Positions 33,612 through 35,761 of a DNA stretch of 40,311 nucleotides are shown here, piece by piece. The position numbers and the translations under genes are program-made. The DNA is taken from NCBI GenBank assembly GCA_964501755.1, contig CAZCTF010000002.1:1-40311 (forward strand). Reading direction: 5' to 3'. The notes under the pieces were generated by a model. That model ran no database searches. It was not told where the DNA came from and worked only from the letters and a program-made list of their open reading frames with translations. This stretch comes from an uncultured Bdellovibrionales bacterium (GTDB taxonomy: Bacteria > Patescibacteriota > Minisyncoccia > Moranbacterales > UBA1568). Numbering within the stretch: the stretch's first letter is position 1; the number at the start of each line of letters is the position of its first letter.

Positions 33612-34988
33612 ATGCGCTTTCTGGCACAGCAAAAGCCACCCAAGAACACCGTCATGGTTGGGTTTCGGGCGGGGCAGCAGGAAGACTTTCAAACCGAGGT
33701 GGATGGCCGAATGAGTTTGGTCATCGGTTTTGATGCGACGAAGAAGCTGAGTCGTCGTGATCTTTTGCTGATCATCCGTCGGATTGTCAGTGTGGCAAAT
33801 GGTAAAAAAATGCAAAGCTTGGCAATCAATTTTTCCGAGGTGAAAATACTCGCGAAGCGGCTTACAATCCGGGATGAGGAATTGGCGGAGCTTGTAGCGA
33901 CCAATCTCATCCTTGCTGATTATGTCTTTGAGGAATACAAGACGCCGCCCAAAGGAGGATTTGCACATGTGAAAAGTATCTATGTACTGGGTGCGAATCG
34001 GCAATCTCTCCAAGCCGCCATTCGGCGCGGGGAAATTATCGCTCGCGAAACCAATCGTGCCCGTCACATCGCGACGATGCCGGCAGGGGAGATGACGCCA
34101 GATATCCTAGCTCGGCATGCACGACAAGCGGTGCGTTCCCTGCCGGTTCGCGTCACTGTGTGGAACGATGCTGAGATCCGGCGGCGGGGTATGGCGGGGA
34201 TTATCGCGGTGGGTCAGGGCTCGGCCGCCAAGCCGCGTTTCATCATTCTTGATTATCGAGGAGGGAAAAAGAGCGAACGACCGATCGTGCTTGTCGGAAA
34301 GGGGGTCACCTTTGATGCCGGCGGCATTAATTTGAAGCCGACCAATGCTATCCTCGGAATGAATATGGATATGTCTGGTGGAGCGAGCGTCATTCATACC
34401 GTTGCGGCGTGTGCACGATTGCGGGTGAAGAAAAATCTGATCGCGCTTATCCCGGCGGTGGAAAATATGATTTCGGGAGAAAGCTATCGCCCTGGGGACA
34501 TCATCCGCACGCTGTCTGGAAAGACAGTAGAGGTACAAGACACGGATGCCGAGGGGCGAATTATTCTTGCCGATACGCTAACATGGGCGGGTCGTTATGA
34601 TCCACGGCTCGTAATCGATGTTGCGACGTTGACGGGCTCAGCGGTGGTCGCGCTTGGGGAGCGGAGCTCAGCACTCTTTACCGAAGATGAGGCTCTCGAG
34701 GTGAAGCTGCGACATATCGGACTCGCGGTAGGGGATCCGGTCTGGCCACTCCCGCTTTGGGATGAGTACCTCGAAGACATCAAAGGGATCCATGCTGATA
34801 TCAGCAATGTCGGAAGTTCGAGATGGGGAGGCGCGATTACAGCCGCTATGTTTTTGAAACAATTCGTTACCTATCCCTGGGCACATCTTGATATCGCTCC
34901 GCGCATGACCACCATCCAGGGAGAATACCTCGCCAAGGGTTCATCTGGAGCAGGGGTGCAGCTTCTCGTGCAATACCTTTCCCGGTAA
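33612..34988 (+). CDS. pepA: Leucyl aminopeptidase (M17 family)
   Basis: VGKGVTFDAGGINLKP, MDMSGGA, VQDTDAEGRIILADTL and ATLTGS motifs. Confidence 0.9.
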   Translation: MRFLAQQKPPKNTVMVGFRAGQQEDFQTEVDGRMSLVIGFDATKKLSRRDLLLIIRRIVSVANGKKMQSLAINFSEVKILAKRLTIRDEELAELVATNLILADYVFEEYKTPPKGGFAHVKSIYVLGANRQSLQAAIRRGEIIARETNRARHIATMPAGEMTPDILARHARQAVRSLPVRVTVWNDAEIRRRGMAGIIAVGQGSAAKPRFIILDYRGGKKSERPIVLVGKGVTFDAGGINLKPTNAILGMNMDMSGGASVIHTVAACARLRVKKNLIALIPAVENMISGESYRPGDIIRTLSGKTVEVQDTDAEGRIILADTLTWAGRYDPRLVIDVATLTGSAVVALGERSSALFTEDEALEVKLRHIGLAVGDPVWPLPLWDEYLEDIKGIHADISNVGSSRWGGAITAAMFLKQFVTYPWAHLDIAPRMTTIQGEYLAKGSSGAGVQLLVQYLSR

Positions 34989-34999
34989 TTTTTTTTGAG

Positions 35000-35027
35000 T
35001 TGCGAATTTTGAATCATGGGGTATACT
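35000..35027 (+). promoter_or_regulatory. Sigma70-like promoter of the candidate sRNA
   Basis: TTGCGA (35000..35005), 16-nt spacer, TATACT (35022..35027). Confidence 0.5.
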
Positions 35028-35032
35028 GGAAG

Positions 35033-35153
35033 TGCCAAACTCCTTCCACCCCACTACCAACTATTGCCGCTGACGCCCCAATACTTGGTCCCGTGGAAGG
35101 ACCGGCACTCGCGAGATGAGGCTGCACAACGTTGCACCTCTCTTTTTCTTTTC
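35033..35153 (+). ncRNA. Candidate structured small RNA (about 120 nt) between pepA and mraZ
   Basis: A 77-nt extended hairpin starts at the predicted TSS. Pairs are GTGCC/GGCAC (35032..36 with 35104..08), CCTTCCA/TGGAAGG (35042..48 with 35094..100), ACCAA/TTGGT (35056..60 with 35085..89) and TATTG/CAATA (35062..66 with 35079..83), with a 12-nt loop CCGCTGACGCCC. A terminator hairpin follows: GAGG(C)TGCA-caacgt-TGCACCTC (35118..35140) plus TCTTTTTCTTTTC. No ORF. Confidence 0.5.
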
Positions 35154-35180
35154 TGGACAAGAGCTATTTTTTGAATAGAG

Positions 35181-35202
35181 CGCCGTTTGAGCGGCGTTTT
35201 TT
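35181..35202 (+). terminator. Second (tandem) rho-independent terminator
   Basis: CGCCG (35181..35185), loop tttgag, CGGCG (35192..35196), then TTTTTT. Confidence 0.65.
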
Positions 35203-35220
35203 GGCTTTTTAAAAGGGTAT

Positions 35221-35249
35221 TTGCAGGTTTTTTAAAAGTGGAATAGAAT
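35221..35249 (+). promoter_or_regulatory. Promoter of the mraZ/dcw operon
   Basis: TTGCAG (35221..35226), 17-nt spacer, TAGAAT (35244..35249), about 77 nt upstream of the mraZ ATG. Confidence 0.55.
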
Positions 35250-35292
35250 GGGTAGTAAGAACAGTGAAGTGGTGAAATGTGGTGAATTTCAC
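35234..35292 (+). promoter_or_regulatory. GTGG-box direct repeats, candidate MraZ operator
   Basis: AAAGTGG (35235..41), GAAGTGG (35266..72) and AATGTGG (35276..82). The last two are 10 bp apart within GTGGTGAAAT/GTGGTGAATT. Palindrome GTGAAtTTCAC at 35282..35292. Confidence 0.45.
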
Positions 35293-35326: not shown

Positions 35327-35761
35327 ATGTTCATCGGCGAGTACCAACATTCGATCGATCCCAAAAAGCGCCTGGCGCTTCCTTCGAAATTTCGTGGGGA
35401 GCTCGGCACTCGGGTCGTTGTGACACGGGGGCTCGACCACTCGCTCTCGGTCTATCCGATGAAAGTCTGGGAGGAACTCGCTGGAAAGCTCGGCGCATTG
35501 CCAGTCGGCGAGACGGGGACACGCAGTTTCACACGGCTCATGCTCGCCGGTGCGACTGATTGCGAGCTCGATGCTCAGGGGCGTGTTCTCATTCCCGAAT
35601 ACCTCAAGACCGAGGCGGGACTGAAGAAGGAAGTCACCGTTGTTGGGCTGTACAATCGGCTCGAGATCTGGGACACAAAAGAGTGGCAGAAGTACAAACA
35701 CCAAGCTGAAAAGAACACCGAAAAGATTGCTAACGAACTCGGCAAGCTCGGTGTCTACTAG
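35327..35761 (+). CDS. mraZ: Transcriptional regulator MraZ
   Basis: MFIGEYQHSIDPKKRLALPSKFR and a second SpoVT/AbrB-like repeat (ELDAQGRVLIPEYL). The ATG at 35327 matches canonical MraZ N-termini. Confidence 0.9.
   Translation: MFIGEYQHSIDPKKRLALPSKFRGELGTRVVVTRGLDHSLSVYPMKVWEELAGKLGALPVGETGTRSFTRLMLAGATDCELDAQGRVLIPEYLKTEAGLKKEVTVVGLYNRLEIWDTKEWQKYKHQAEKNTEKIANELGKLGVY

Follow-up and report, generated by a model that had tools for sequence, protein, structure and literature searches.

In Rhodobacter sphaeroides, the small RNA (sRNA) UpsM is generated by termination inside the long 5′ untranslated region (5′ UTR) of mraZ and acts in trans on the dcw mRNAs ftsW and mraY (PMC5089854, PMC8266604). 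No separate transcription start site (TSS) is found near mraZ at the UpsM locus; instead, dcw mRNA is produced when transcription continues past the terminator of the sRNA (PMC5089854). UpsM appears to be the closest known analogue of the element described here, a predicted sRNA gene located directly upstream of mraZ in a 40,311-nt stretch of DNA (hereafter the window; contig CAZCTF010000002.1), which is contig C2 of a 0.93-Mb, 96%-complete genome from the Candidate Phyla Radiation (CPR). Members of the CPR are ultra-small bacteria, uncultivated and probably symbiotic, whose genomes measure about 1 Mb and retain few regulators. To our knowledge, almost nothing is known about riboregulation in CPR/Patescibacteria, and stand-alone trans-acting sRNAs are essentially uncharacterized in these bacteria.

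The reading favoured here, with moderate confidence, is that of a stand-alone gene for a structured non-coding sRNA of about 122 nt, predicted to act in trans, and followed by a second terminator (T2) that insulates the MraZ-controlled dcw promoter. The structure and its covariation, the conservation of the promoter and terminators, the single copy, the restriction to one genus and the fixed position before mraZ are results of the computation; the RNA itself probably acts in trans, either as a base-pairing regulator or as a protein ligand. The combination of a predicted promoter of its own, an intrinsic terminator, a conserved structure and the absence of a conserved open reading frame (ORF) is that expected of an sRNA gene, and the element is well supported, at the level of comparative sequence analysis, as a previously uncatalogued sRNA gene family of one CPR genus.

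Like UpsM, the predicted sRNA lies immediately upstream of mraZ on the same strand and ends at a Rho-independent terminator, and both are lineage-restricted, UpsM to one family (Rhodobacteraceae) and the present element to one genus. On the other hand, UpsM is 206 nt long, compared with about 122 nt here, and depends on Hfq, RNase E and the partner sRNA StsR; no similarity in sequence or structure was found between the two, as judged by an Rfam scan of the region, and no pairing to dcw genes was detected for the present element. The arrangement downstream also differs, as two tandem terminators are followed here by a complete predicted promoter with MraZ boxes. Since this predicted mraZ promoter lies between T2 and mraZ, the lack of a separate mraZ TSS that defines the UpsM locus is predicted not to be shared.

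Features shared with generic trans-acting sRNA genes are a predicted promoter, the lack of a conserved ORF, conservation of the loop of the terminator hairpin and of exposed loop sequences, and a narrow phylogenetic range. While such sRNAs typically combine a single-stranded seed with small hairpins, the present RNA is predicted to form one long rod, with its conserved nucleotides located in bulges and internal loops on one side. This conserved side looks more like a surface for protein or tertiary contacts than a linear seed.

Architecture, covariation and distribution of the RNA unit

The promoter TTGCGA-16-TATACT named in a preliminary description of the window is present as placed and was also called by a consensus scan, which returned two promoter-like sites in 600 bp against 0.6 expected (Table 1). 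All 17 homologues keep a TTGnnn box and a TATACT or TATATT box, at fixed spacing, ahead of GAAGUGCC. An extra CTTGACA box is found about 10 nt upstream of the −35 box in ten of the 17 homologues and is missing in the copy of the window. The 77-nt hairpin initially proposed, with four named helices and a 12-nt apical loop, was reproduced by RNAfold with exactly those helices; its ends, GUGCC (35032–35036) and GGCAC (35104–35108), are extended by an extra A–U pair, giving 79 nt (35031–35109). The first terminator (T1), also present where it had been placed, has the stem-loop GAGG.CUGCA-CAACGU-UGCA.CCUC (35118–35140) and a U-tract reaching 35153; it was missed by a simple terminator scanner, yet its stem covaries between species. 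The second, strong terminator of the preliminary description was called by the scanner, and at the position of T2 every homologue has a hairpin with a T-run, whose stem sequence differs from copy to copy; the T1–T2 spacer likewise lacks conservation among homologues.

The region 35030–35210 folds at −64 kcal/mol (z = −5.0), a value equalled by none of 200 dinucleotide shuffles, and T-runs are confined to the plus strand. Mechanical ORFs of 39–52 amino acids in the ORF list overlap the element, which had been described as free of ORFs; none of them is conserved as coding, because the homologues differ by indels of one or two nucleotides, which are not multiples of three. This indel pattern speaks against a coding small ORF.

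Table 1. Coordinates, strand and basis of the features of the sRNA unit and its surroundings in the window
Feature	Position	Strand	Description
sRNA promoter	35000..35027	+	−35 TTGCGA 35000–35005, 16-nt spacer, −10 TATACT 35022–35027; called by consensus scan
Predicted sRNA, ~122–126 nt	35028..35153	+	Predicted TSS near 35028–35031 to U-tract of T1; covariance models R1 and R2 match end to end
Rod-like hairpin P1–P4	35031..35109	+	RNAfold minimum-energy fold, −32.4 kcal/mol
P1	35031–35036/35104–35109	+	RNAfold
P2	35041–35049/35093–35101	+	RNAfold
P3	35056–35060/35085–35089	+	RNAfold
P4	35062–35066/35079–35083	+	RNAfold
Apical loop, 12 nt	35067–35078	+	CCGCUGACGCCC, carrying conserved core UGACGCCC
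Linker palindrome CUCGCGAG	35108..35115	+	Invariant in 15 sequences
Terminator T1	35118..35153	+	8-bp bulged stem, loop CAACGU, then UCUCUUUUUCUUUUC; −8.6 kcal/mol
Terminator T2	35177..35205	+	GC-rich stem, 4-nt loop, U6; stem-loop 35177–35200; scanner-called; −13.2 kcal/mol
Inverted GTGGAAGG boxes (P2)	35041–35049; 35093–35100	−; +	Considered in the DNA-level alternative
Predicted mraZ (dcw) promoter	35221..35292	+	TTGCAG, 17 nt, TAGAAT 35244–35249; GTGG repeats with 10-nt spacing and leader palindrome; context, outside the sRNA
mraZ coding sequence	35327..35761	+	ORF list; probable true start ATG 35327, MFIGEYQHSIDPKKR...

All 17 homologues, when folded individually, form the same P1–P4 rod followed by T1. 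The rod still forms in divergent members in which P3 and P4 differ in sequence, for example L023 and L024, which carry AUCU/AGAU in place of UAUUG/CAAUA. The structural covariation in relatives expected of the RNA initially described was found: in the model-fitted alignment, standard pairs occupy 94.5% of the pair cells, compared with 36–46% when the 3′ partners are slid by 1–3 columns, and double (compensatory) changes, counted first on 13 sequences and then on 17, occur in 17 of the 33 pairs; none of 500 shuffles reached the observed values. Compensatory changes were found in P1, P2, P3 and P4, and T1 shows double changes at six of its eight stem pairs, its loop CAACG being invariant.

A different solution was returned by RNAalifold from a plain MAFFT alignment, in which a local helix GGUCC/GGACC was proposed in place of P2–P4. 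This result was set aside because MAFFT had misaligned the variable, indel-rich 5′ strand. The GGUCC/GGACC helix is possible in nearly all sequences and essentially invariant, conflicts with the covarying P3 and does not involve T1; it is at most a minor conformer, the long hairpin being favoured by the individual folds and by the structure-guided alignment. Pseudoknots that would join the apical loop, the linker or the T1 loop to one another were looked for by inspection; they comprise no more than 3 bp and do not covary with the linker change.

The distribution of the RNA was assessed with a covariance model built from three close sequences, with the structure of the hairpin and T1 (R1), and with a model rebuilt from 17 sequences (R2), for which the sRNA at 35028–35153 scores 153.7 and 137.4 bits, respectively. 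One copy was found with R1 or R2 in 13 of the 14 species of the genus to which the window belongs, including a copy in G009 that is cut by a contig end, and the RNA is also carried by four metagenome contigs (WBZP01003373, Ga0075158_10121517, OEIV010005115 and Ga0163144_10039646). Covariance-model searches detected no copy in the remaining species of the genus (G005). The same held for a sample of 25 other genera from the family and order, and for 140 additional genomes representing 117 genera across the class. Both BLAST and the covariance model indicate a single copy per genome, and BLAST also finds the element in most of the same-genus species. The loose pattern TGACGCC..GTGGAAGGACC, run over the genome contigs, yielded one true copy among the matches listed, the others being chance, and a stricter three-box pattern on the metagenome contigs gave 12 matches, of which four were real and eight, all within GC-rich genes, were due to chance. 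One homologue (L109) is carried by CAYWVL010000059.1, the same contig as G006:C59. The label of this contig, 'uncultured Bdellovibrionales bacterium', is probably a taxonomy error; with about 0.9 Mb, the genome clusters with others of CPR size.

Promoter, hairpin, T1 and T2 are kept as a block in the 17 sequences. At the corresponding locus of G005 (L175, G005:C10), a different upstream gene and a plain terminator are followed by a TTGACG-type mraZ promoter; in this species the RNA is dispensable, or has been lost or replaced. G009 has two mraZ loci, and at that on contig C5 (L173, G009:C5:41561–44992) the RNA is rearranged, with another 5′ hairpin, made up of GAGUGAG/CUCACUC and CCAGCGGC/GUCGCCUGG, and retains UGACGCC, ACC and a terminator with a CAACGUU loop. 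This second mraZ locus is either paralogous or derived from another strain that shares the bin.

Constraint on the RNA extends beyond base pairing. The loop core UGACGCCC is conserved, with variants RACGCC, and P2 (CCUUCCAC/GUGGAAGG) is invariant in 16 of the 17 sequences, five of its nine pairs never varying. The internal loops of the 3′ side, UCCYG and the ACC bulge, are invariant, and the conserved 3′ strand reads GUGGAAGG-ACC-GGCAC; the internal loops of the 5′ strand are variable in length and sequence. In G001 and G011 the linker is CCUGCAGG, another perfect palindrome, which equals two paired double substitutions; such a swap suggests intermolecular self-pairing or recognition by a dimer. 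In the genome, CTCGCGAG occurs in 43 copies against 18 expected, and TCGCGA in 680 against 256. That one face of the rod is invariant suggests that a protein or RNA partner recognizes it specifically; the constancy of P2, of the ACC bulge and of the loop cores UGACGCCC and CAACG points in the same direction and not to a mere terminator or spacer. The functional parts are probably UGACGCCC, GUGGAAGG-ACC-GGCAC, the palindromic linker and the T1 loop CAACG, and not C-richness as such.

That P2 is invariant rather than covarying could alternatively be explained at the level of DNA. According to this explanation, which is regarded as quite improbable, the inverted GTGGAAGG boxes and the CTCGCGAG palindrome would bind MraZ or a dimeric regulator, or would be the remnant of a palindromic mobile element. 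In its favour, the P2 core GTGGAA matches exactly the first of the GTGG boxes in the mraZ promoter (AAAGTGGAAT), the linker remains a palindrome where its sequence is replaced, and wobble pairs do not discriminate between the strands. However, the compensatory changes in P1, P3, P4 and T1, together with the variable internal loops, fit a folded single strand and not an operator, and the MraZ operators described so far are direct repeats with 10-bp phasing, whereas the boxes in question are inverted and 50 bp apart. The CTCGCGAG palindrome is, moreover, common in the genome, as indicated above. The element is single-copy everywhere and occupies an orthologous position without terminal repeats or target duplications, and a repeat of the miniature inverted-repeat transposable element or repetitive extragenic palindrome type was rejected on the same grounds.

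Known RNA families

The RNA had not been recognized in the preliminary description, and the Rfam comparison gave the same outcome: no family matched at gathering thresholds in the whole window, and the E-value mode returned only terminator-driven noise (rimP, sroD, mir-308 and RMST_5; E = 1.6–6). No tRNA or tmRNA was found in the window by ARAGORN.

Because the genome has no matches to the models of signal recognition particle (SRP) RNA and 6S RNA, a divergent SRP RNA was considered worth testing. RF00169 matched neither the window nor the whole genome at E <= 10, and across 41 genomes of the order it had no match at E <= 1; RF01854 gave no match in five genomes. Among the 14 named genomes used as controls, RF00169 was detected in 13 and RF01854 in 12. 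In SRP RNA, domain IV is capped by a GNRA tetraloop, next to which lie conserved loops of symmetric and asymmetric type. The rod described here ends in a 12-nt apical loop, with no tetraloop of the GGAA type. As for the protein partners, the Ffh M domain (PF02978) was found in none of the 41 genomes of the order, the SRP54-type GTPase (PF00448) had no match in the genome itself and only weak P-loop matches, none of them true, in 121 genomes of the phylum, and six-frame translation revealed no in-frame GxxGxGKTT/DTAGR/TKxDG set of the SRP GTPase. The genome and 40 relatives from its order are without detectable Ffh, FtsY or SRP RNA. Both SRP subunits are absent from many CPR bacteria (PMC8080830), and given this published loss and the negative searches for Ffh and FtsY there would be no SRP protein for such an RNA to bind.

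It is therefore extremely improbable that the element is a divergent housekeeping RNA, namely the SRP (4.5S) RNA or the 6S RNA of this lineage. Such an identity would fill slots that look empty, RF00169 and RF00013 being unmatched genome-wide (the latter at E <= 10), and the long hairpin with internal loops resembles 4.5S RNA (about 80–115 nt) and has the right size for it. Nevertheless, the element lacks the GNRA tetraloop, the symmetric and asymmetric loop motifs of domain IV, any model match and the Ffh and FtsY partners, and SRP RNA was rejected for these reasons. The 6S RNA was likewise rejected, since the fold, a 5′ hairpin followed by that of the terminator, lacks a central bubble enclosed between paired ends. 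Confinement to one genus is also unlike a housekeeping RNA.

A riboswitch or attenuator is unlikely, since two terminators and a further promoter stand between the element and the next gene, and none of the 17 folds showed a conserved pairing that could compete with T1 as an antiterminator. The guanidine-II riboswitch (mini-ykkC, RF01068) resembles the element in having two hairpins with ACG-core loops, here GACGCC and AACGU. In the present RNA, however, the loops contain ACGY within larger loops instead of ACGR tetraloops, and no regulated gene follows within the unit; a guanidine-II-like pair of loops was discarded in view of the ACGY loops and of the lack of an Rfam match even at E <= 10.

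Position relative to pepA, mraZ and the dcw promoter

At every locus examined, the RNA lies directly upstream of mraZ–rsmH, on the same strand. On the other side, pepA precedes the RNA in some species, and others have bcp or a different gene there, so that, of the original placement between pepA and mraZ, the mraZ side is constant and the pepA side does not hold in several species. In the window, the pepA stop codon (34986–34988) is 11 nt ahead of the −35 box of the sRNA, and between the two there is a T8 run but no hairpin. As pepA has no terminator of its own, its transcripts would run into the sRNA unit and have to end at T1 or T2.

This arrangement might be taken to indicate a passive element, a 3′ UTR or terminator of the upstream gene that also insulates the dcw promoter, without any function as a free RNA. 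The need for T1 and T2 to end pepA transcripts would be accounted for, and other genera do have a single plain terminator at this position. A plain terminator, however, needs no 79-nt covarying hairpin with invariant loops and bulges, and an invariant terminator loop and a −35/−10 pair at a fixed distance from the hairpin would be superfluous for it; furthermore, the element is kept where the upstream gene differs. The passive explanation is thus considered improbable, and a stand-alone sRNA gene remains preferred.

Downstream of T2, a conserved A/T-rich stretch leads to TTGCAG-17-TAGAAT, and the region 35221–35292 contains the GTGG boxes AAAGTGGAA, GAAGTGGTGAA and AATGTGGTGAA, the last two of which are 10 nt apart, together with the palindrome GTGAATTTCAC. 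The dcw promoter had been said to begin only at 35221, and the next promoter-like site is indeed at 35220/35221. The same layout of promoter and GTGG boxes is found in genera without the RNA (for example G016, G017, G030 and G036), where it stands right behind the single terminator of the upstream gene; its conservation in other genera of the order makes it a probable MraZ operator. Since RNA-less genera share this promoter, mraZ would have a promoter of its own and the RNA unit would be an insertion between it and the upstream gene. With its promoter and terminators conserved as a block and a separate mraZ promoter homologous to that of RNA-less genera, the element fits the independent unit originally suggested.

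The position of T1 and T2, 125–175 nt upstream of the mraZ ATG, also bears on a further alternative, a dcw leader or attenuator of the UpsM type. In that case the site at 35000 would be an upstream dcw promoter, the hairpin would serve for sensing or as a platform for processing, and mraZ–rsmH–fts would be supplied by regulated passage of polymerases through T1 and T2, with the terminated transcripts as a by-product sRNA. UpsM provides an exact precedent, the element precedes mraZ directly in every genome, whichever gene lies upstream, with both on the same strand, and T1 may leak, its U-tract being interrupted and its stem modest (−8.6 kcal/mol). Several features of the locus nonetheless make a leader unlikely: the terminators are two in tandem, the second of which is strong; a complete conserved mraZ promoter with predicted MraZ boxes follows, and its homologue, the sole mraZ promoter of the RNA-less genera, appears to function there without the RNA; the folds revealed no conserved antiterminator to T1 on inspection; and the T1–T2 spacer is unconserved.

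Predicted action and wider significance

As a stand-alone sRNA gene, the element would be transcribed from the sigma-70-type promoter at 35000–35027, starting near 35028–35031. The first 80 nt would fold into the four-helix rod, followed by the palindromic linker, and the transcript, about 122 nt long, would end at T1, at about 35150. Polymerases passing T1, as well as those arriving from pepA, would be stopped by T2, insulating the dcw promoter. Action in trans would take place through the exposed invariant elements, namely UGACGCCC, the UCCYG and ACC bulges, the linker and the T1 loop CAACG. Because the RNA is constantly linked to mraZ, the pathway concerned is likely, by analogy with UpsM, to be cell division or envelope growth.

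A number of observations weigh against this interpretation. The TSS, the 3′ end and the abundance of the sRNA are predictions. The pair counts lean towards the structure because the alignment was fitted to the model, the individual folds being the independent check on them. Cells with G–U pairs (10) barely exceed those with A–C (8), and since wobble pairs do not discriminate between the strands, the strand assignment rests on the promoter and the T-runs. The absence of the RNA from G005 and its rearranged version at G009:C5 indicate that it is dispensable or fast-evolving. The searches for a target revealed no convincing site: the only perfect 9-mer complement of the loop falls within the secA reading frame, the top sites of an RNAduplex comparison of the loop with the whole genome are unremarkable and lie within ORFs, and duplexes of the conserved 52-nt half of the RNA with the dcw genes present in the window fall within a sampled genome background.

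Exact complements of the loop are not enriched in the genome. Pairing of the C-rich loop with G-rich Shine–Dalgarno (SD) regions, as put forward in the preliminary description, was not borne out, because no enriched G-rich targets were found and most genes here are presumably without strong SD sequences.

A broader proposition is that CPR lineages keep non-homologous, fast-evolving sRNA genes before an MraZ-controlled dcw promoter, as analogues of UpsM that tune division. Although rather unlikely, it is compatible with the constant linkage to mraZ and with the G009:C5 locus, where the hairpin is replaced and UGACGCC, ACC and CAACG are kept. In a specific variant of this proposition, the GUGGAAGG/CCUUCCAC helix, which shares its GTGGAA core with the MraZ boxes, may link the RNA or its gene to MraZ.

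Fixed in position ahead of a cell-division operon, the element gives metatranscriptomic and biochemical work a concrete subject. Considered alongside UpsM, it hints at a possible repeated origin of RNA control over the dcw cluster. It is also useful for annotation, as a candidate Rfam family; being genus-restricted, it is no surprise in kind.

The mraZ gene that follows has its longest ORF from GTG 35279, while the conserved MraZ N-terminus, MFIGEYQHSIDPKKR, begins at ATG 35327, before which no SD sequence is visible. Within the genus, the MraZ proteins are 81–96% identical.

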